From: a virus
Lineage: Duplodnaviria; Heunggongvirae; Uroviricota; Caudoviricetes
Virus record (IMG/VR): IMGVR_UViG_3300011399_000002
Coordinates: 1 to 55,870 of that record
Strand: one strand, 5' to 3'
Length of the DNA: 55,870 nt
Shown here in pieces: positions 5,643 through 13,229 of the stretch; positions within the stretch are counted from its first letter, which is position 1, and each line of letters opens with the position of its first letter. The notes beneath the pieces are model-generated. The model did not search any database and was not told the DNA's origin. It saw only the letters and a list, made by a program, of their open reading frames with translations. The position numbers and the translations under genes were made by a program.

Positions 5643-5875
5643 GCTTCTGATATGCGGACTTTCATTCCTTCATACTGATATCATATACGAACGTCTGTGA
5701 CACTATAAGCGGTGCATAATGCTCTTCACATTGACTAGTCATGTGCAATCATTCACTCCCGGCTGGAAACGTAAGTTACAAGTAGTTTCCCTGTGAGGTC
5801 ACTGAGAGGTCAAGGTTTTAGCGACGGCTGACGATTTTGTTTTCTGGCCGGAAAACAAAGGCGCATATCAGAAGC
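5643..5875 (+). ncRNA. Candidate structured ncRNA B (233 nt)
   Basis: Perfect 14-bp closing helix GCTTCTGATATGCG (5643-5656) / CGCATATCAGAAGC (5862-5875); internal hairpins at 5727-5745, 5765-5790 and 5836-5859. Confidence 0.6.
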
Positions 5876-5884
5876 ATTTATTAT

Positions 5885-5961
5885 GGCTCCGTATCCCAAT
5901 CGGCAGAGGAAACTGACTTAAAATCAGTCAAGTGTCGGTTCGAATCCGACTGGAGCTACCA
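5885..5961 (+). tRNA. trnL: tRNA-Leu(UAA), short variable loop
   Basis: Cloverleaf: GGCTCCG/TGGAGCT, anticodon arm ACTGA-CTTAAAA-TCAGT, T-loop TTCGAAT, A73-CCA. Confidence 0.93.
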
Positions 5962-5988
5962 ATTCCTTTGGACAGGAAGTGAAATTAT

Positions 5989-6195
5989 ATGGCACCTTTA
6001 GAAGTGTACTGCAAAGAAATACTGCACTCAGGGTGCGCGCTCGTACAGGGCAAGCACTCATGGGAAGAGTGCGATGCAAAGTATGTTTACGAACGTATCG
6101 CTGTCAAGCACCAAACAACATTAAAGGGTTTGGGTCTTGCTATCGGTACGTGGGTTGACGCAAATCGATATGAGTTAAAAGAAAAAGGTAAGTAA
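5989..6195 (+). CDS. Hypothetical protein
   Basis: 68-aa ORF filling the gap between two tRNAs. Confidence 0.55.
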   Translation: MAPLEVYCKEILHSGCALVQGKHSWEECDAKYVYERIAVKHQTTLKGLGLAIGTWVDANRYELKEKGK

Positions 6196-6199
6196 TCGT

Positions 6200-6277
6200 G
6201 GGCCGGTGATGTAATTTGGTAAACGTGTCGCTCTCAAACAGCGAATTTTGTGGGTTCGAATCCCACCCGGCCTACCA
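6200..6277 (+). tRNA. trnL: tRNA-Leu(CAA), short variable loop
   Basis: GGGCCGG/CCGGCCT, TCGCT-CTCAAAC-AGCGA, TTCGAAT, A73-CCA. Confidence 0.93.
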
Positions 6278-6282
6278 AATTT

Positions 6283-6360
6283 GGCGACGTAGCCCAACTG
6301 GCAGGAGGCGTATGCCTTAGGAGCATAACAGTGAGAGTTCGAATCTCTCCGTCGCTACCA
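6283..6360 (+). tRNA. trnL: tRNA-Leu(UAG), short variable loop
   Basis: GGCGACG/CGTCGCT, TATGC-CTTAGGA-GCATA, TTCGAAT, A73-CCA. Confidence 0.93.
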
Positions 6361-6375
6361 AATTTTAGGAGAGTA

Positions 6376-6564
6376 ATGCGTAGAATAGTATTGCTTGCTA
6401 TGTTATTTGCTATAGCAGGTTGTGGCTCTGGTGCTACAAAGGGCGCACAAATAGCACCCTTTAAGGACAGTGACCTAACAGATTGTATATCTGTTACAAT
6501 GGACTATGTAAACTACGAGCAATATAACGGTATCTACTGTAGAGCAAATTTAGAGATTCCCTGA
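6376..6564 (+). CDS. Small lipoprotein
   Basis: Start re-set to ATG 6376 (SD AGGAG); signal peptide MRRIVLLAMLFAIAG-C with lipobox. Confidence 0.7.
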   Translation: MRRIVLLAMLFAIAGCGSGATKGAQIAPFKDSDLTDCISVTMDYVNYEQYNGIYCRANLEIP

Positions 6565-6565
6565 C

Positions 6566-6595
6566 TTGACCTTCTGGTGGTCAGTAAGGTATGAT
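6566..6595 (+). promoter_or_regulatory. Sigma70-type promoter inside the tRNA array
   Basis: TTGACC-18 nt-TATGAT, same gACTTGAccTT context. Confidence 0.55.
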
Positions 6596-6647
6596 TGATT
6601 CCGACAGTCGGAAGACAGAGGTGATACAATGGTAAACGTAACCGAAG

Positions 6648-6848
6648 ATGGGATACGAGGTTGCTCTTAGTCCTCTCTTTATAAAGACATTGTATCGCAG
6701 ATTAATTCGTGCAGGGTATACACCAAAAGAAGCCGGAAATCTGGTTGCTAAAGTAATGGGTCTAGTTGCCTCAGAGAAGGGATGGACTGTTAAGCAATTA
6801 ACTGATCTTCTATTTCTACAGTATATAGATAAAAACCAAGAAAAATAA
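6648..6848 (+). CDS. Hypothetical protein (true start may be ATG 6629 in another frame)
   Basis: 66-aa helical ORF; the best SD (GAGGTG) precedes an out-of-frame ATG at 6629. Confidence 0.55.
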   Translation: MGYEVALSPLFIKTLYRRLIRAGYTPKEAGNLVAKVMGLVASEKGWTVKQLTDLLFLQYIDKNQEK

Positions 6849-6855
6849 TTCTCAC

Positions 6856-6930
6856 CCGCCCGTAACTTAATGGATAAAGTCTCGGAGTTCTAACCCGAAA
6901 ATGGGGGTTCGATTCCCTCCGGGCGGGCCA
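6856..6930 (+). tRNA. trnR: tRNA-Arg(UCU)
   Basis: CCGCCCG/CGGGCGG, TCGGA-GTTCTAA-CCCGA, TTCGATT, G73-CCA. Confidence 0.9.
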
Positions 6931-6949
6931 TTTTATTTAAGGAGTATCA

Positions 6950-7159
6950 ATGACAAAGGTAGCAGTTAGGGATGGACAGAAGGTTGTTCCTACTTGTCCT
7001 AAGTGTGAATGCAGACTAGAGAAACAAGCCAACGGCGATTATACTCACTTTATGAAGTGGGCTAACTGGATCGCTAAGGATGCAAGAGGTTGTTCTTGTA
7101 CTTTATTGTTCGAAAAGTTTGCTATCGTTGATAGAAAAGTAACTCTCGTTTGGGTATAG
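6950..7159 (+). CDS. Hypothetical Cys-rich (Zn-binding) protein
   Basis: 69 aa, SD AAGGAG, CPKC...CSC. Confidence 0.6.
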   Translation: MTKVAVRDGQKVVPTCPKCECRLEKQANGDYTHFMKWANWIAKDARGCSCTLLFEKFAIVDRKVTLVWV

Positions 7160-7198
7160 ACCCAAAAACAAGTAAAAACAAAGGTTAGTATTTGCCAT

Positions 7199-7273
7199 CT
7201 AGGTGTGGTGTAGCGGTAGCACTTCACGTTTGGGACGTGACGGTCGAAGGTTCGAATCCTTTCACCTAGACCA
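7199..7273 (+). tRNA. trnP: tRNA-Pro(UGG)
   Basis: CTAGGTG/CACCTAG, TCACG-TTTGGGA-CGTGA, A73-CCA. Confidence 0.93.
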
Positions 7274-7293
7274 TTTTTACTTGGGAGTCTAAA

Positions 7294-7701
7294 ATGAATT
7301 AGAAAAAGAGAATGAGAAATAAAGATATTTTTAGAGCAGCAATTGGGAGTGGACACTTTCCTCTGACATTCAATTTCGTATATAGAAGGGATGGAAGATT
7401 TATACAGTGTTACGGTTGTGGTAAATATGTCTACTATAGGCAGATTACGCGCGACCATGTGTACCCTAAAAGTAAGGGCGGGCAACTAAAGGCTCCTGCA
7501 TGTATTGATTGTAATATCAAAAAAGAAAACATGCTACCCATTGAATGGGCCATTTACGCTCATAAGCATAACTTGGATGCCGCTACAATCCCTCTTGGGG
7601 CAGAGTACCTACAAGAGTATGTTGATATGCTGCCAAGTAAGCATGAAATGTATATAAACTTCGCTCAACTCTTTGAGCAAATTATTGCCGGTGTAGCATA
7701 A
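7294..7701 (+). CDS. HNH endonuclease; SD-linked ATG 7294 is followed by in-frame TAG at codon 3 (alternative start ATG 7312)
   Basis: CYGCG...TRDHVYPKSKGG...ACIDCNIKK is an HNH signature. GGGAG-6 nt-ATG AAT TAG AAA AAG AGA ATG is in frame with the 129-aa ORF. Confidence 0.8.
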
Positions 7702-7761
7702 TGGTTAATGTTACAGTCTTCCAAACTGTAGATGTGGGTTCGATTCCCATCACCGGCTCCA
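7687..7761 (+). tRNA. trnG: tRNA-Gly(UCC)
   Basis: GCCGGTG/CACCGGC, ACAGT-CTTCCAA-ACTGT, U73-CCA; its first 15 nt overlap the 3' end of the HNH ORF. Confidence 0.93.
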
Positions 7762-7787
7762 TTTAATCATCAGGTGGTGAATATGAT

Positions 7788-8150
7788 TTGGCAGAACACG
7801 TAACAGTATTTCCATTAAAGGCTAGAACAACAGCACAAACCAGTTCTATTATTGAGAACGACGAAGGCGCAGAGGGTTTAGTTGTAGTTATCGATTGTAC
7901 AGCAGTCGCAGACACTCCTTCTGTTACATTTACAATTCAAGGTTACGATACTACGTCATCTAAAGCCTATACTATTTTAGCATCGGCTGCTATTACAGGC
8001 ACAGGCACAACTGTATTGAGGGTTCATCCCGCATTAACAGCAGCAACAAACACTATAGCAAAAGACTTGTTACCTCGTTACTGGCGCGTAAGCGTAGCAG
8101 TAGCAGATGCAGACTCTATGACTTATAGTGTTGGGGCATCAATGGTTTAA
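7788..8150 (+). CDS. Small all-beta protein, possibly a virion decoration/jelly-roll protein
   Basis: 120 aa, Thr/Ala/Val-rich strands (GLVVVIDCTA, SVTFTIQG, RYWRVSV, TYSVGA). Confidence 0.55.
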   Translation: MAEHVTVFPLKARTTAQTSSIIENDEGAEGLVVVIDCTAVADTPSVTFTIQGYDTTSSKAYTILASAAITGTGTTVLRVHPALTAATNTIAKDLLPRYWRVSVAVADADSMTYSVGASMV

Positions 8151-8155
8151 TTCTA

Positions 8156-8230
8156 CCAGTAGTAATATAGAGGCTATTATGCGTGCTTGCCAAGTACGAC
8201 ACGGGAGTTCGATTCTCCCCTACTGGACCA
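8156..8230 (+). tRNA. tRNA with GCC (Gly) anticodon but non-Gly acceptor end (C1-G72, A73)
   Basis: CCAGTAG/CTACTGG, CGTGC-TTGCCAA-GTACG, GGGAG-TTCGATT-CTCCC, A-CCA. Confidence 0.85.
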
Positions 8231-8245
8231 ATTTATTGTAAGGGG

Positions 8246-9004
8246 ATGGTTCAGATCGTCAGGGTATACTATTGGAAGTCAGTTGCTAACTTCGGTGATC
8301 AATTGAATCCATTGTTACTACGACGATTTCCTAGGCTTCTTACTGAATGGTCGGAACCCGATGATGCGGAGTTAGTGCTTTGTGGTTCAGTGATAGATCG
8401 ATTGCCTAGAGATTGGACAGGAGTTATTGCTGGATCAGGAAAACTGCATGAATACACAAAGGTACCACCGGAGGCAAGAATACTAGCACTTAGGGGACCA
8501 CTCTCTGCAAAGGGAGTTAAAGGTGATTTTGCTCTAGGTGATCCGGGGCTTCTCGCTGATGAATTAATACAAAGAGAAGATAAACAGTATGATCTTGGAA
8601 TCGTTCCGCATTGGACTGACAAGGCTCTGGAATTCGATAAAAGGTTTCTACGTTACAATCCTAGAATCATACGAGTAGCAGACGATCCTCTTGAAGTTAT
8701 CAGAGAAATCGGGCGCTGCAAAAAGATAGTCAGTTCTTCATTACATGGAATAATACTAGCAGATGCTTTCAATATTCCTAGAAGAATAGAGATAGCACCA
8801 AGAATGCTAACTCATCCTCATCAAGAGGGTGGGTTATTCAAATGGCACGATTACAGTGAGAGCATAGGGATGACCTTAGAGATAGGGTTAACCCAGCAAG
8901 CCTCTCCATTTAATATAAGTCAGAGGCAACATGAGTTATATGATGTTCTTAGAGAGTTAAGGGTGGTGTTTAATAGTGGGACGACGACCAAAAGTCAGAC
9001 CTAA
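8246..9004 (+). CDS. Polysaccharide pyruvyltransferase family protein (ExoV-like)
   Basis: Start re-set to ATG 8246; motifs NFGDQLNPLLL, ALRGPLS, GDPGLL, HWTD, VSSSLHGIILADAFNIP. Confidence 0.88.
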   Translation: MVQIVRVYYWKSVANFGDQLNPLLLRRFPRLLTEWSEPDDAELVLCGSVIDRLPRDWTGVIAGSGKLHEYTKVPPEARILALRGPLSAKGVKGDFALGDPGLLADELIQREDKQYDLGIVPHWTDKALEFDKRFLRYNPRIIRVADDPLEVIREIGRCKKIVSSSLHGIILADAFNIPRRIEIAPRMLTHPHQEGGLFKWHDYSESIGMTLEIGLTQQASPFNISQRQHELYDVLRELRVVFNSGTTTKSQT

Positions 9005-9854
9005 GATAAGTCTATTGATCCCCTTTACTACTAGGGACGCATACAGAAAGAAAACTTTTAGGTGGTTACTAGACTACTGGAAGGCAGAGTTGCCCGATGC
9101 AGAGATTGTAATAGGGCATAGCACTGGTCCCGTATTCTGTAAGACAGAGGCTCTTAACAGAGCAGCACACAGAGCAAACGGAAAGGTTCTAGTTGTTCTC
9201 GATGCTGATGCATACATCAGTGGAGCGATATTAAATAACGTAGCAGACATAATACTGGAAGAATTGGAGCAGGGCTATCAAACTTGGTATGTACCGTACA
9301 GAAATCTTTACAGGTTGAACTTAGACACTACACTTGCTATACTGGAATCTGACCCGGAGAACCCGGTGAGGATACCCGATCCGCCACCAGACAATTATCT
9401 TGACAATGAACCTAATGCAGCAAAGTATGGTAGAGCGTTCGCAGCACTTGCATACGTTATACCAAGAGAAGCCCTAGAGGCCATTGAATGCTTTGATGAA
9501 AGGTTCAACAGAGGATGGGGTGGGGAAGATGTATCAACCCTACGAGCATTAGATACACTTTGGGGCAAGCATAAGACTACTCCTAATGGTATCTTCCACT
9601 TATGGCATCCTAAGATCGGAGACACGTTTAAAACAAGAGCGTGGCAAGGTCAGAATGATGATGAGCCGAATAGAAAGTTAGCCGTTCAGTATAAAATTGC
9701 CAGTCAAAACCCCTCTGTAATGAGGGAGTTAGTACGAGAGGGCTGTGACTTCAAGAAAAGAAAAGAAGAAGCAGGAATCTTGTGGGACGGTCCCGATGAA
9801 TGGATGCAGGAAATTATCATAGAAACTGTCGGTAGAAATAAGAAGTTTTTATAG
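8976..9854 (+). CDS. GT-A fold glycosyltransferase (GT2/GT7-like)
   Basis: ISLLIPF, KTEALNRA, LVVLDAD (DxD), FDERFNRGWGGED, FHLWH. Confidence 0.88.
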   Translation: MGRRPKVRPKISLLIPFTTRDAYRKKTFRWLLDYWKAELPDAEIVIGHSTGPVFCKTEALNRAAHRANGKVLVVLDADAYISGAILNNVADIILEELEQGYQTWYVPYRNLYRLNLDTTLAILESDPENPVRIPDPPPDNYLDNEPNAAKYGRAFAALAYVIPREALEAIECFDERFNRGWGGEDVSTLRALDTLWGKHKTTPNGIFHLWHPKIGDTFKTRAWQGQNDDEPNRKLAVQYKIASQNPSVMRELVREGCDFKKRKEEAGILWDGPDEWMQEIIIETVGRNKKFL

Positions 9855-9864
9855 GAGAAAGGAA

Positions 9865-10194
9865 ATGAGTAGCGGAGAAGCAGATGCATACAAGATTCCA
9901 GTTGTAGGTTCGGTAGTAACGGATACAAATACCTCTGGTTTTTATTCAGTAGGTGACTGGTGGACTTCACCGTCTACTAGCACTATACAGTATACCTATA
10001 CTACCAAAGTCTATATGTATCAGATTACCTGTCCTAGATGTAAGCAACTAAATTGGTGCGAATTAGATCAAACAGTAACGTGTGATACTAAACTTCCGAC
10101 AAGGATAGTCGGGCGCAAGAAAGTAGAATCATACTGCGGGGCAGTCTTACAAGCAGTAAAAGATACTGTAGACTATCAAGTCCCCGTAAAGTAA
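9865..10194 (+). CDS. Hypothetical protein with Cys motifs (possible Zn ribbon)
   Basis: 109 aa, SD AAAGGA, CPRC...C...C. Confidence 0.6.
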   Translation: MSSGEADAYKIPVVGSVVTDTNTSGFYSVGDWWTSPSTSTIQYTYTTKVYMYQITCPRCKQLNWCELDQTVTCDTKLPTRIVGRKKVESYCGAVLQAVKDTVDYQVPVK

Positions 10195-10199
10195 CTCAC

Positions 10200-10273
10200 A
10201 TGGAGGTCGTTCAACGGTAGGATCACAGTCTCCAAAACTGTCAATCAGGGTTCGAATCCCTGCCGCCATGCCA
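10200..10273 (+). tRNA. trnW: tRNA-Trp(CCA)
   Basis: ACAGT-CTCCAAA-ACTGT, CAGGG-TTCGAAT-CCCTG, G73-CCA; one A-G mismatch in the acceptor stem. Confidence 0.88.
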
Positions 10274-10293
10274 AACTTAGGAGTTGATTATGG

Positions 10294-10359
10294 GTGGAAG
10301 GTCTACTTATAGTATTGTTAATTATTTGTGCTATAGTGTTCTTGATTAAGAACCTATAA
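10294..10359 (+). CDS. Possible 21-aa single-pass membrane peptide
   Basis: GTG start after AGGAG; MEGLLIVLLIICAIVFLIKNL. Confidence 0.35.
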   Translation: MEGLLIVLLIICAIVFLIKNL

Positions 10360-10366
10360 CATTCAT

Positions 10367-10452
10367 GGGTTAGGTGAGCATGTTCGGTACGCTCAGGAGT
10401 CTGTAAAACTCCCGTCTAGGCTATGCAGGTTCGAATCCTGTCTAACCCACCA
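10367..10452 (+). tRNA. trnY: tRNA-Tyr(GUA)
   Basis: GGGTTAG/CTAACCC, GGAGT-CTGTAAA-ACTCC, long variable arm, A73-CCA. Confidence 0.93.
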
Positions 10453-10453
10453 T

Positions 10454-10528
10454 CCCTTCATCGTATAACGGCTATTATATTTGTCTGTCGAACAAGAGAC
10501 AGGGGTTCAACTCCCCTTGGAGGGGCCA
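10454..10528 (+). tRNA. trnD: tRNA-Asp(GUC)
   Basis: CCCTTCA/TGGAGGG, TTTGT-CTGTCGA-ACAAG, G73-CCA. Confidence 0.9.
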
Positions 10529-10542
10529 AGAAAGGAATAAAA

Positions 10543-10761
10543 ATGAAGAAGTTGATCTTCTTAGTCGCATCTGTTATAGTAGTTGCAGGATGCCGTGCAG
10601 ACTTCTCCCCCGGTGAAACGGTGGAGCAGGGCACAAATCCTCTAGGTACATCACAGATTAAATACGTACATGATGATAAGCATGGAGTAGGCTGTTGGTT
10701 CTTTGTTGATGAATCAGGTTCATCACTAAGTTGTCTTCCTGACAGTCAATATACGCCATAA
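10543..10761 (+). CDS. Small lipoprotein
   Basis: Start re-set to ATG 10543 (SD AAAGGA); MKKLIFLVASVIVVAG-C lipobox; C-terminal HDDKHGVGCW...SCLP. Confidence 0.72.
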   Translation: MKKLIFLVASVIVVAGCRADFSPGETVEQGTNPLGTSQIKYVHDDKHGVGCWFFVDESGSSLSCLPDSQYTP

Positions 10762-10766
10762 TATAT

Positions 10767-10844
10767 GCCGGGGTAGCTCAGTCTGGTAGTAGCGGTTGTT
10801 TGAAGAGCAGCGCGTCGTCGGTTCAAATCCGACTCCCGGCACCA
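10767..10844 (+). tRNA. trnF: tRNA-Phe(GAA)
   Basis: GCCGGGG/TCCCGGC, GTTGT-TTGAAGA-GCAGC, A73-CCA. Confidence 0.92.
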
Positions 10845-10852
10845 ATTTTCGC

Positions 10853-10928
10853 GGGCCAGTAACTTAAAGGATAAGTAGCTGTCTCTTAAACAGTCGTTAT
10901 GAGGGTTCAAGTCCCTTCTGGCTCGCCA
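10853..10928 (+). tRNA. trnK: tRNA-Lys(CUU)
   Basis: GGGCCAG/CTGGCTC, GCTGT-CTCTTAA-ACAGT, G73-CCA (A73 is more usual for Lys). Confidence 0.9.
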
Positions 10929-10950
10929 ACAATTTTAGGAAGTGAAGTGA

Positions 10951-11145
10951 TTGGGTCGATTATATGAAGGATTGTGGAGGGTTCTATTAGTAACTGAAAC
11001 AGTATCAGGTACAGAAAGAATGGCATTCACACAACCAGATGTATATGAAGAATGTGAGAGGCGATGCATCTTGCACGGTATGGGAGTACCATATGAAGGC
11101 GAGAGAGTCAAGCGCGCATTAATCGTAGGCCCAGTAGAGGAATAG
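10951..11145 (+). CDS. Hypothetical protein
   Basis: 64-aa ORF, first of a tightly packed trio. Confidence 0.5.
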   Translation: MGRLYEGLWRVLLVTETVSGTERMAFTQPDVYEECERRCILHGMGVPYEGERVKRALIVGPVEE

Positions 11146-11152
11146 GAGTACA

Positions 11153-11326
11153 ATGGAAAAAGAGCATGAGCGTTTATGGAACGCTTATGAGGCAACGGCA
11201 AAGAAAATCAAGGCTCAACTTAATTCACCCAAGGGTGGAACACAGGCAGAGTCAGAATTCAAGATTGCATACCAGAATCTAGTGAAGGCTGGATTGGCTA
11301 TGCAAATCAAGAAGAAGTATCGATGA
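11153..11326 (+). CDS. Hypothetical protein (57 aa, not in the ORF track)
   Basis: SD AGGAG; MEKEHERLWNAYEATAKKIK...QIKKKYR; stop overlaps the next ATG (ATGA). Confidence 0.65.
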   Translation: MEKEHERLWNAYEATAKKIKAQLNSPKGGTQAESEFKIAYQNLVKAGLAMQIKKKYR

Positions 11327-11514
11327 ACAACGCAATAAGAATAGAGGAGTTAATTACTTTTCTAATCGATGCTGGCATGGAAGAAGAAACCGTGCAACAC
11401 TTCTTGAACAGAAAGATATTCAAGGATCGTTCGCTTATGGAGTATATAAGAGAAGATGAGTGGCTTAAAGTTTGGGGTTATGCCCAAGCATACATGGCCG
11501 GTGATCAAATCTAA
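11323..11514 (+). CDS. Hypothetical protein
   Basis: 63-aa ORF coupled to the upstream stop. Confidence 0.6.
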   Translation: MNNAIRIEELITFLIDAGMEEETVQHFLNRKIFKDRSLMEYIREDEWLKVWGYAQAYMAGDQI

Positions 11515-11517
11515 CAT

Positions 11518-11592
11518 GGTGATGTTAGTGTAACGGCAACACTTCTGGTTGTGGTCCAGACATTACGGGTTCGAATCCCGTACATCACCCCA
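11518..11592 (+). tRNA. trnH: tRNA-His(GUG) with encoded G-1
   Basis: G-1/C73, GTGATGT/ACATCAC, TCTGG-TTGTGGT-CCAGA, CCA. Confidence 0.93.
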
Positions 11593-11605
11593 ATTAAGGT
11601 AGGAA

Positions 11606-11857
11606 ATGATAAAGTACGGCAGCACTATTCGGTTAAAGTTTATCATGACTGATAACTTTGGAGAACGGGTTCTTTACGAAGAGCCCTTCACCTTTACTAA
11701 GGATCATTATAAGGTACGGAAATTCATAGAGGCTTTTCAACAAGGCGTTGAGGATGCCCTCAAAGACCTTGATCGTGACGTAGAGTATCTTGATAGACTA
11801 CGTGACATTCCTACAGCCGTCCTACAGGGAGAGATTAAACGAAGATCAATTCGTTAG
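11606..11857 (+). CDS. Hypothetical protein
   Basis: 83-aa ORF between tRNAs. Confidence 0.55.
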   Translation: MIKYGSTIRLKFIMTDNFGERVLYEEPFTFTKDHYKVRKFIEAFQQGVEDALKDLDRDVEYLDRLRDIPTAVLQGEIKRRSIR

Positions 11858-11931
11858 CCTAGTCGTCCAACGGTAGAAGATATCTCGCTGATAACGAGAG
11901 GAACGCAGTTCAACTCTGCGCTAGGCTACCA
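11856..11931 (+). tRNA. trnI: tRNA-Ile(GAU)
   Basis: AGCCTAG/CTAGGCT, TCTCG-CTGATAA-CGAGA, A73-CCA. Confidence 0.92.
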
Positions 11932-11937
11932 CTTTAT

Positions 11938-12011
11938 ACTCCTTTAGTGTAAAGGCTGCACGCCTCACTCTAAATGAGAAAGAAGGGGTTCGATTCCCCT
12001 AGGGAGTACCA
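11938..12011 (+). tRNA. Amber suppressor tRNA, anticodon CUA (reads UAG)
   Basis: ACTCCTT/AGGGAGT, D-arm GTGT/GCAC, CCTCA-CTCTAAA-TGAGA, AGGGG-TTCGATT-CCCCT, A73-CCA. Confidence 0.88.
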
Positions 12012-12014
12012 AAT

Positions 12015-12188
12015 ATGCTTGAAGAAGAATTTAAACAGCACCTACGGATTACATTGCTGTGGTACACAGCATGGCTTGTAGCACACGGTCCTAAAGACCC
12101 AGCAACAGATATGAACAAATCTGTTAATACCTTTCTTGAAGAGGATGAAGATTTAATTGTACGATTTTTTGATATGCAGGAGAAGTAA
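12015..12188 (+). CDS. Hypothetical protein (57 aa, not in the ORF track)
   Basis: MLEEEFKQHLRITLLWYTAWLV...FFDMQEK directly after the suppressor tRNA. Confidence 0.55.
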   Translation: MLEEEFKQHLRITLLWYTAWLVAHGPKDPATDMNKSVNTFLEEDEDLIVRFFDMQEK

Positions 12189-12190
12189 GA

Positions 12191-12424
12191 ATGACTTAGC
12201 GTTACCAGATAGACGTTAATGGTTATAAAGTTAAACAGGCTAAAGAAGGTTTGGATACACCTTGTATCCGTATCATGGATAATACTACTGGACAGATTTG
12301 GTATGCCAAGGAGATTAAGTTTCTTGGCCCAACACAAATCTCTCAGTGTGATCCTGATAAAGATAACCTCAACAAACCTTTTATCTGGATTGAGACTGAT
12401 GGTCCTATAGAGTGGACTAAATAA
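12191..12424 (+). CDS. Phage protein of 77 codons interrupted by in-frame TAG at codon 3
   Basis: SD CAGGAG, then ATG ACT TAG and an open frame RYQIDVNGYKVKQAKEGLDTPCIRIMDNTTGQIWYAKEIKFLGPTQISQCDPDKDNLNKPFIWIETDGPIEWTK to TAA. By eye it resembles a widespread small phage family (IHVN...P.I.V...Y..E..ILGP...VWIET). Confidence 0.7.
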
Positions 12425-12427
12425 TTT

Positions 12428-12522
12428 GGCTCGCTAGTGAACCGTTAACACGCTCGGATAAAGTAGGTAAAATCTATGAGCAGGACCGGGAGAAAGAGGT
12501 TAGATTCCTCTGCGAGCCTCCA
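12428..12522 (+). tRNA. tRNA-like RNA: Cys-type acceptor (GGC/GCC, U73-CCA), 28-nt expanded anticodon loop, T-loop TTAGATT
   Basis: GGCTCGC/GCGAGCC, D-stem GTG/CAC, anticodon stem CTCGG/CCGGG, T-arm AGAGG/CCTCT. Confidence 0.7.
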
Positions 12523-12523
12523 T

Positions 12524-12597
12524 TGACGTATAGTGTAATGGTACCACGACTGGCTCTGGACCAGTTAATCTAGGTTCGAATCCTAGTACGTCAGCCA
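12524..12597 (+). tRNA. trnQ: tRNA-Gln(CUG)
   Basis: TGACGTA/TACGTCA, ACTGG-CTCTGGA-CCAGT, G73-CCA. Confidence 0.93.
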
Positions 12598-12619
12598 ATC
12601 AACAGCAGAGGTAGTTTTT

Positions 12620-12847
12620 ATGGATAGTAAAGACAGGAGAACGAAACGCCAGAAGATAGAAGATATGGCGAATCAATCTGCCTCTCCGCTTGAAGCAGAG
12701 ATTGCAAAGAAGAAACTAGAGGAAGTTAGGGAAGACGAGCCCCTCATTTTTGCCAAATTTATCTTTAATATAGAAGATGAAGAGAACGACCTATTCAAAA
12801 ATTGGTCGTCGTTTTGGGCAACAGCCTCCGGTTTAGGAGAGTATTAA
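12620..12847 (+). CDS. Hypothetical protein (weak DUF2786-like helical motif)
   Basis: 75 aa; KIEDMANQSASPLEAEIAKKKLEE. Confidence 0.5.
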   Translation: MDSKDRRTKRQKIEDMANQSASPLEAEIAKKKLEEVREDEPLIFAKFIFNIEDEENDLFKNWSSFWATASGLGEY

Positions 12848-12848
12848 T

Positions 12849-12923
12849 CCGCCCTTAGCACAATGGAGAGTGTATCGGAGTTCGATCCCGAGGGTGCGCG
12901 TTCGACTCGCGTGGGGCGGGCCA
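12849..12923 (+). tRNA. trnR: tRNA-Arg(UCG)
   Basis: CCGCCCT/GGGGCGG, TCGGA-GTTCGAT-CCCGA, G73-CCA. Confidence 0.9.
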
Positions 12924-12933
12924 AGTAAATAAA

Positions 12934-13138
12934 TCAGGTCCGAAGCTGTCATAATGTACCCGAAAGGGTTTCGATAAACACTGAGGATAAGCGGTTAATT
13001 TCTAGTGATACAACGGCACACTAGAGCCTGAACGTCCTTTGGTAGTGTGGACGTAAAACAAACTATTGCCCACCGGGTTGTTGCGATCAAAGGCCCTCCT
13101 TGGAGGGAAAGCCGGTGATGGGGTTGAATAAAGCAACA
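12934..13138 (+). ncRNA. Candidate structured ncRNA C with possible pseudoknots
   Basis: ORF-free gap with helices TCAGG/CCTGA, ACCC-GAAA-GGGT, TCTAGTG/CACTAGA, CGTCC/GGACG, CACCGG/CCGGTG and CCCTCC/GGAGGG. Confidence 0.5.
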
Positions 13139-13154
13139 GAATAAAACCACTCGT

Positions 13155-13229
13155 TGCGGGTGGGCGGTATGGTTATCTCACGGGTTTCATAAGCCCACAA
13201 ACTGAGTTCGATTCTCAGACCCGCAACCA
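13155..13229 (+). tRNA. trnM: tRNA-Met(CAU), initiator-like acceptor sequence
   Basis: TGCGGGT/ACCCGCA-A-CCA resembles the fMet acceptor; loop TTCATAA; three G-C pairs in the anticodon stem. Confidence 0.85.

Follow-up and report, generated by a model that had tools for sequence, protein, structure and literature searches.

A phage tRNA with a CUA anticodon lies beside a small gene whose conserved third codon is UAG

The DNA analysed here (the window) makes up the first 55.9 kb of a virus record that is complete at 119,870 bp and carries direct terminal repeats. The complete genome has a G+C content of 43% and yields 28 ARAGORN calls, one of which, a 'tRNA(TCA)' at 108688, lacks CCA. Eighteen same-strand tRNAs called by ARAGORN form an array at 5885-13229 (plus strand), and a tRNA with the anticodon CUA is among them. 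The slot of the array that holds this CUA tRNA, and the small gene that follows it (the client gene), contain the following features:

11856-11931, plus strand: tRNA-Ile(GAU), the upstream anchor of the slot, 6 nt from the CUA tRNA
11938-12011, plus strand: CUA tRNA, 74 nt (ARAGORN; coordinates include CCA)
11970-11972: anticodon CUA of this tRNA, with A73 at 12008 and the encoded CCA at 12009-12011
12015-12188, plus strand: orphan 57-codon ORF between the CUA tRNA and the client gene (from the sequence)
12178-12182, plus strand: Shine-Dalgarno (SD) sequence AGGAG of the client gene, 8 nt before its ATG
12191-12424, plus strand: client gene, 77 codons, ATG ACT TAG ... TAA, with the TAA at 12422-12424
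12197-12199, plus strand: in-frame TAG of the client gene, codon 3 (from the sequence)
12428-12522, plus strand: tRNA-Cys-like element, marking the place of tRNA-Cys(GCA) in relatives
12524-12597, plus strand: tRNA-Gln(CUG), the downstream anchor of the slot

The CUA tRNA has a complete cloverleaf. Its acceptor stem is ACUCCUU/AGGGAGU (A1-U72, C2-G71, U3-A70, C4-G69, C5-G68, U6.G67, U7-A66), followed by U8 and A9, a D arm GUGU-AAAGGCU-GCAC with a 7-nt loop containing GG, and G26. The anticodon stem CCUCA/UGAGA carries a C27.A43 mismatch and closes the loop CU-CUA-AA, the variable loop is AAGA (4 nt), and the T arm is AGGGG-UUCGAUU-CCCCU. The Rfam tRNA model RF00005 matches it over full-length positions 1-71 with 56.1 bits (gathering score 29, E 3e-10), and its anticodon loop (C32 U33 C34 U35 A36 A37 A38; seven nucleotides, U33, purine at 37) satisfies the criterion for an amber suppressor. 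The 'Pyl' label it receives is the ARAGORN default for any CUA anticodon. A preliminary description of this DNA had listed the loop, A1-U72, C2-G71, U3-A70, A73 and the 4-nt variable loop, all of which are correct on re-reading, and had proposed an intact amber-suppressor-type tRNA whose amino-acid identity cannot be read from the sequence, a view that our analysis supports. We found no match to the tRNA region in a megablast search against INPHARED phages, nor in a scan of IMG/VR with an exact 36-nt tRNA pattern.

While the suppressor-type reading of the tRNA stands, that description overlooked a specific and conserved client, which lies 180 nt downstream on the same strand. The client gene begins AGGAG-N8-ATG ACT TAG CGT TAC CAG, and the codons after the TAG read R-Y-Q-I-D-V-N-G-Y. 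Using tblastn and pattern scans of IMG/VR (L007, L027, L028) and JGI metagenomes (L035-L039), with further homologues from a profile search of 1.84 billion proteins, we recovered the gene in 11 phage lineages at 50-86% identity. Codon 3 is TAG in all 11, and each starts with ATG or GTG, then ACN or TCA, then TAG; for L037-L039 and L228-230 the leader readings rest on upstream sequence only. An SD sequence at the same spacing is present in nine aligned homologues. Behind the TAG, in some lineages after one additional small residue, all share the motif (R/K)-Y-x-I-(D/T)-V-N-G-(Y/F), in which the codons differ mostly synonymously (R is written CGT, AGA or CGA, and the codons for Y, N and G vary likewise). 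Across the aligned homologues no start codon occurs for 10-17 codons after the TAG. Synonymous divergence in a stretch that lacks a start codon indicates that the stretch is translated and that translation must cross the TAG. A purine directly after UAG is a context that favours suppression, and 11 of 13 leaders have one immediately behind the TAG, against about half of the phage's ordinary TAG stops.

What the client protein does cannot be read from its similarities. Its AF2 model is a small all-beta fold (pLDDT 74) without a match in the PDB, its matches in AFDB are only uncharacterised or unnamed small proteins, and no Pfam domain was found. Gene prediction deals poorly with such an ORF: the database entry for a close relative (P0002) begins at an internal TTG, and that for P0001 translates only 'with TAG=Q'. 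In L027 the client itself ends in TAG (5758-5775), with 6 nt left to the CUA tRNA of that phage; two codons beyond this terminal TAG comes another one in frame, partly within the tRNA gene.

To place the slot among relatives we used TerL, which gave 21 IMG/VR loci at 60-84% identity whose tRNA arrays are collinear with that of the window. Six relatives read Ile(GAU), Glu(CUC), Gln(CUG), and the Glu(CUC) slot is the one that the CUA tRNA of the window occupies. In the nearest complete relative (G001; 120,336 bp, TerL 84%) Ile(GAU) and Gln(CUG) abut, and no CUA tRNA occurs anywhere in the genome. In two other relatives, L003 and L007, CUA tRNAs stand elsewhere in the array.

The client gene and a CUA tRNA occur together. 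Ten of the 11 client-bearing lineages have a CUA tRNA on the same contig, and the contig of the eleventh (L037) ends 13 nt after tRNA-Phe. The gap between client and tRNA is 9-361 nt in eight contigs, about 270 nt in L226 and about 500 nt in L230. Conversely, none of 11 related arrays without a CUA tRNA, including that of the complete 120-kb G001, contains the client gene. A naive Fisher test on 17 contigs gives p = 4e-4, which is only indicative, since the lineages are related and the counts are not independent events. When we scanned for the bare motif (an SD sequence, ATG or GTG, any codon, TAG and at least 40 open codons), it was present in all five CUA-tRNA records then available and in none of 18 scanned records without a CUA tRNA, and it turned up twice in 1.11 Mb of unrelated phage DNA. 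Eight other phage CUA-tRNA loci that share the T arm have no codon-3 TAG motif within the short stretches available. The features by which a suppressor-tRNA-gated gene pair would be recognised, namely a TAG among the first few codons of a constrained ORF, a nearby CUA tRNA, a pairing that is kept across relatives and a standard genetic code (documented below), are thus all present. The same data bear on whether the anticodon might be a sequencing error, which the preliminary description had named as a refutation: CUA tRNAs occur in at least nine other independent contigs of the group, each beside a gene that needs one, and an error is therefore untenable.

The CUA tRNAs of the group belong to at least two unrelated scaffolds. 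Seven relatives carry a tRNA of 75-78 nt whose variable loop has 5 nt and whose D stem is of the GCUC/GAGC type in all but one; position 73 is U, or G in one case. This tRNA comes shortly after the client and is followed by tRNA-Cys where the sequence reaches that far. The tRNA of the window, L226 and L003 measures 74-76 nt, has A73 and a variable loop of 4 nt, and its D arm is of the GUGU/GCAC type. The L226/L227 phage is the most informative comparison, with a client gene 85.6% identical in DNA to the window's and the same order of Ile(GAU), CUA tRNA, client, Cys and Gln. Its CUA tRNA agrees with that of the window at only 57 of 76 aligned positions, and of the seven acceptor pairs only two are shared (the L226 stem is GCGCUCG/CGGGCGC). 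Eight stem pairs are altered on both sides between the window and L226, and eight between the window and L003, with pairing preserved in each, and the loop CUCUAAA is invariant. The slot downstream of the client, where other relatives keep their CUA tRNA, is empty in the window. On this comparative evidence one kind of suppressor is a replacement for another, made while the TAG stayed, which is what would be expected if the client needs some reader of UAG but no particular one. Together with the strict pairing of client and CUA tRNA, this apparent non-orthologous replacement points to the client as the putative selected target.

The position of the tRNA also raises the question of whether it is merely a copy of some sense tRNA that is decaying or neutral and is neither charged nor used; tRNA-Glu(CUC) with A in place of C36 would be an example. 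Such a copy could well sit in what is the tRNA-Glu(CUC) slot of more distant relatives, the nearest complete relative has no tRNA there at all, and the C27.A43 mismatch could be taken as a sign of decay. However, the tRNA has an intact cloverleaf, an encoded CCA and a conserved A36-A37-A38 loop; the stems of the three same-scaffold tRNAs have evolved by compensation; and the client would be untranslatable without such a tRNA. We give this explanation scarcely any weight.

A glycoside hydrolase family 16 gene (L226, 1284-2237) lies between tRNA-Ile(GAU) and the CUA tRNA of L226, where the window has only 6 nt, and the ORF between tRNA and client in L226 differs from the window's; these inter-tRNA spaces behave as swappable cassettes. 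In the window the space between tRNA and client holds the orphan ORF at 12015-12188, which has no homologue in any relative. Its ATG lies 3 nt after the CCA of the CUA tRNA, and its only SD-like sequence, GGGAG (12002-12006), is inside the 3' acceptor strand of that tRNA, so that tRNA processing would remove its ribosome-binding site. It may not be a real gene.

Downstream of the client, the element at 12428-12522 has the acceptor GGCUCGC/GCGAGCC, U73, CCA, the D stem GUGA/ACAC and the T arm AGAGG-UUAGAUU-CCUCU, and a 28-nt 'anticodon loop'. Its similarity to the tRNA-Cys(GCA) of L036 is 76%, and it can be aligned to an intact tRNA-Cys in L227 (545-618). Neither ARAGORN with default settings nor Rfam at the gathering score detects it, and ARAGORN at lowered thresholds returns it as a tRNA with an intron. 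A pseudogene, a tRNA into which a short stretch has been inserted, and a tRNA-like RNA are all possible readings; no further tRNA-Cys is present in the phage. The expanded loop contains a promoter-like TTAACA-17-TAAAAT (12445-12473).

Which amino acid the CUA tRNA might insert is not evident from its sequence. It is not a tRNA-Pyl, for which a 3-nt variable loop, a 6-bp anticodon stem, a small D loop lacking GG, an unusual T loop and pylS/pylBCD would be expected: the variable loop here has 4 nt, the anticodon stem has five positions of which four are paired, the D loop has GG, and the T loop has the canonical sequence UUCGAUU. No synthetase turned up when 29 ORFs of at least 200 aa were scanned with Pfam. 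Nor is it a supE-type derivative of tRNA-Gln, which needs U1-A72, G2-C71, G3-C70 and G73 where this tRNA has A1-U72, C2-G71, U3-A70 and A73; all 15 of the group's listed tRNA-Gln genes have G73, and nearly all start with U1 and G2. None of the Gln, Gly, His, Ala, Ser, Tyr or Pyl identity sets is met. The preliminary description had likewise noted the lack of a Gln acceptor set, of a long variable arm and of tRNA-Pyl architecture, as well as G73 in the phage's own tRNA-Lys(CUU) (10853-10928), and both the structure and the ARAGORN calls bear these points out. Its guess that LysRS or GlnRS charges the tRNA is still reasonable, with charging itself inferred. Among the three A73 tRNAs, C34-U35-A36, A37-A38, A73 and the D arm are kept and the acceptor stem varies freely; U35, A73 and the loop CUCUAAA persist where acceptor stems differ. 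In the suppressor collection of Normanly, Kleina, Abelson and Miller, tRNAs without strong acceptor determinants are said to be often charged with Lys or Gln through U35, and under E. coli rules such tRNAs are, in the 1990 account by Normanly and co-workers, reportedly mostly charged with one of these two. Our odds for the residue are rough: Lys is plausible at somewhat under even chances, a residue other than Lys, Gln or Glu comes a little behind it, and Gln or Glu is a doubtful third. Since unrelated scaffolds do the same job at position 3, the inserted amino acid is probably unimportant, and the comparison suggests that the choice of residue is not under selection.

The ancestry of the tRNA is equally elusive. 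Its acceptor end agrees with that of some phage tRNA-Glu genes, and its best single match is a phage tRNA-Glu(UUC) with the same ACUCC/GGAGU-A acceptor end (73%); its identity to the group's Glu(CUC) is 67% at best. A D-arm motif scan returned mostly Trp and His (a Trp/His/Gln type), pairwise similarity gave a mix of Glu and Trp, and isotype HMMs scored Asp 48.2, Glu 39.3 and His 38.1, with the L226 orthologue assigned to Trp/His and the L003 tRNA to Gln/Trp. These HMMs are home-made and were 88% accurate on held-out phage tRNAs. We could not name a sense parent isotype, as the methods disagree (Glu/Trp, Trp/His, Asp/Glu), and an origin from tRNA-Glu(CUC) by one mutation is therefore unproven.

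Other tRNAs of the group are also unusual. Where a bacterial tRNA-Leu would be expected to have a long arm, the three tRNA-Leu genes of the window (UAA, CAA and UAG at 5885-5961, 6200-6277 and 6283-6360; 77-78 nt including CCA) have a variable loop of 5 nt. The tRNA-Leu genes of related phages mostly have short loops too, and only two have a long arm. Most tRNA-Gly(GCC) of the group have A73 rather than U73, tRNA-Arg(ACG) has U73 and some tRNA-His have A73. These discriminators may be informative about the synthetases of the unknown host.

Charging would have to be done by that host. The preliminary description had suggested searching the genome for an aminoacyl-tRNA synthetase or release factor; we ran this search and found neither encoded. 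Six-frame HMM searches of the genome gave no RF-1, no GluRS/GlnRS and no class II Lys/Asp/AsnRS domains, and Pfam scans of 29 of its ORFs of at least 200 aa, which include all but one of the ORFs of that size outside the window, gave no synthetase of any class. Without a synthetase in the genome, a host enzyme must charge the CUA tRNA. The phage does encode a set of proteins for tRNA or RNA maintenance, identified by Pfam:

74131-74832, 84298-84960 and 106278-107807 (genome coordinates, beyond the window): tRNA/RNA maintenance set

This set consists of a PolyA_pol head domain (a nucleotidyltransferase of the CCA-adding type), an RNA ligase and a Ro60/TROVE protein. NAMPT, an IMPDH/GMP reductase-like protein, a class II RNR, ThyX, PolA and DnaB are also encoded.

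The phage uses the standard code. Its large structural ORFs are intact under table 11, and in a crude ORF call the stops of 184 ORFs are TAA in 99, TGA in 43 and TAG in 42 (about 23%). With long ORFs intact and TAG ending 42 of 184, the genome does not qualify as a code-15 (TAG-recoded) member. The preliminary description had expected partial read-through of ordinary TAG stops, of which we find no trace: the extensions opened by reading through TAG have a median of 7.5 codons and are no longer than those after TAA or TGA, and the TAG share is the same as in G001, the nearest relative and one without a CUA tRNA (42/184 here, 35/168 there). In a genome-wide tblastn screen for coding across TAG, off-frame conservation of the DNA drowned out any signal; we used targeted checks instead, in which no other TAG showed conserved coding across it. 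Among the candidates rejected in this way were five TTG-start ORFs with an early TAG at codons 3-7 (70181, 83163, 89062, 41803 and 51581), which are not conserved across the TAG, and the TAG-separated in-frame pairs at 58899/59460, 112314/112983 and 68120, each of which has its own SD and ATG. With TAG so common as a terminator, a cost would be expected of an efficient suppressor; since TAG is used no less than in the relative without the tRNA, suppression must be weak, brief or position-dependent, none of which has been demonstrated.

These results bear on the possibility that the tRNA is a general tool, for read-through, for action on the host or as a counter to defences that target tRNAs or translation, and that genes with TAG at codon 3 merely tolerate or exploit it. 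The 42 phage ORFs ending in TAG could then give extended products, and the phage invests in tRNA maintenance (the CCA-adding-type enzyme, the RNA ligase and Ro60); CUA tRNAs are also found in other phage contigs, whose genetic code we did not check. Yet no TAG-terminated ORF has a conserved in-frame extension, the neighbours downstream have their own SD and ATG, and the strict pairing with one small gene and the non-orthologous replacement of the CUA tRNA point to that gene as the target. We regard a general tool as unlikely.

Besides the client, a second gene in the array carries a TAG at codon 3:

7294-7701, plus strand: HNH endonuclease gene, after tRNA-Pro (Pfam HNH_5, 35.6 bits, cut-off 27.5)

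Its leader reads GGGAG-N6-ATG AAT TAG, with the TAG at 7300-7302, followed by three codons and an in-frame ATG at 7312. In L003, whose CUA tRNA is of the same scaffold, the HNH gene is 57% identical and has the leader AAGGAG-N8-ATG ACA TAG. The codon-3 TAG leader is absent from the homologues examined in L005 and L169-L171, which have no CUA tRNA, and in L027 and L028. The closest homologue (66% identical), in L166, has the leader ATG GTA TAG TGT ATG after tRNA-Pro (2070-2110) without an SD, and no CUA tRNA occurs in the 10.5 kb of L166 sequence available; this leader may be the relic of a lost gate, or chance. In the window, the ATG four codons past the TAG could serve without suppression. 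The HNH gene is thus only a possible second client, with weaker support than the small gene.

The sequence SD-ATG-ACN-TAG might be an autonomous two-codon minigene or leader, acting by termination and reinitiation or by peptidyl-tRNA drop-off, and the tRNA might be unrelated to it. With an ATG so close behind the TAG, reinitiation is plausible in the HNH gene, and early drop-off and minigene effects are real in bacteria (PMC10192219, PMC2490762). The small gene does not fit, however, as it offers no start codon over the 10-17 codons in question and is nevertheless constrained as a protein, and the co-occurrence with CUA tRNAs would remain unexplained. We consider a minigene highly improbable.

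Taking these observations together, our best explanation is that the phage carries a functional amber-suppressor tRNA, charged by the host and working under the standard code, whose task is to read the UAG at codon 3 of the gene at 12191-12424 and perhaps that of the HNH gene; we put the probability of this reading at roughly 0.68. Ribosomes that start at the SD-linked ATG would make fMet-Thr and reach the UAG. Without the CUA tRNA they would terminate, and only a dipeptide would be released and wasted; with it, they would read through and make the client protein. There would then be no client protein except where and while the phage tRNA is available in processed and charged form, a feed-forward dependence. 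The tRNA and the client probably share a transcript, an inference drawn only from their being adjacent with no terminator-like site in between; our promoter and terminator scans gave counts close to those in shuffled sequence. All of these functional statements are inferences from sequence comparison, and nothing in them is experimental: that the tRNA is expressed and aminoacylated, that a residue is inserted at the UAG, and that the arrangement regulates as a gate or timer, as opposed to a mere dependence of the client on the tRNA, are each inferred. For aminoacylation and insertion the support is indirect only and comes from the in-frame TAG, conserved in a constrained gene that goes with such a tRNA.

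It is tempting to speculate further that the arrangement is a one-codon switch, in which the tRNA is replaceable and the residue irrelevant, and in which a UAG at codon 3 exploits poor release-factor action, or different competition, on ribosomes that carry a dipeptide. We hold this idea only tentatively and think it may well be wrong. If true, a weak suppressor could open one or two chosen genes without reading through the 42 ordinary TAG terminators. That would give standard-code phages a reason to keep suppressor tRNAs, and it would explain the early-codon position seen repeatedly in gene families that are unrelated.

Parts of this arrangement have known counterparts. The E. coli amber suppressors supE, supF and su+7 have a CUA anticodon on an ordinary elongator tRNA, but they arose by host mutation or were constructed, in each case from a sense tRNA that is known, whereas the phage tRNA has no assignable sense isotype and appears to be maintained in the virus by selection. 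In prfB, the autoregulated gene for RF2, an early in-frame UGA is passed by a +1 frameshift, and the release-factor level is sensed in this way. There too an early in-frame stop makes the yield of protein depend on competition at that stop, but the phage case needs no frameshift and the competitor is a dedicated tRNA. A further likeness is engineered: in the 'leak dampener' (Ho et al. 2021, NAR; PMC7969014), an amber codon after the start codon and a co-regulated suppressor tRNA remove the leak of a toxic gene. As in our proposal, protein is made only when the suppressor tRNA is present and the amber codon lies just after the start codon; the dampener was built in E. coli with supP under an inducible promoter, whereas the phage pairing is natural and conserved.

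Similar dependence is found on a larger scale in code-15 phages (crAss-like, Lak), where a CUA tRNA lets TAG-containing phage genes be translated in a standard-code host and a role of the suppressor in timing such genes has been proposed (PMC11210395, PMC9523058, PMC10879173). Those phages have in-frame TAGs across many, mostly late, genes and have largely lost TAG as a terminator, whereas the in-frame TAG of this phage is restricted to codon 3 in one or two small genes that lie within the tRNA array. Sup-CTA tRNAs occur in 52% of predicted table-15 phages (PMC11210395), and the present phage could be seen as a minimal version, a way-station to or from genome-wide recoding in which the first in-frame TAGs have become fixed without regulatory meaning. 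But a drift to recoding would scatter TAGs across genes. Here the TAG stands exactly at codon 3 in 11 diverged lineages, the 120-kb genome has no further in-frame TAGs, and TAG is not depleted as a terminator. We find a way-station without regulatory meaning very unlikely, and prefer the reading of a tRNA kept for its client.

A full-text literature search returned no paper that describes a CUA tRNA paired with an early TAG in frame, and none that explains suppressor tRNAs in standard-code phages; the known literature concerns genome-wide recoding. For annotation, our findings mean that gene callers truncate or miss the client, through internal starts or TAG read as Q, and that its tRNA is labelled 'Pyl'. 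For phage biology, an otherwise unexplained suppressor tRNA gains a concrete and testable target in a neighbouring gene, whose codon 3 is a conserved UAG. Should this be confirmed, the pair would be a minimal natural case of tRNA-gated translation, with the same logic as the engineered silencing of leaky genes, and a possible first step towards the recoding of a whole genome.
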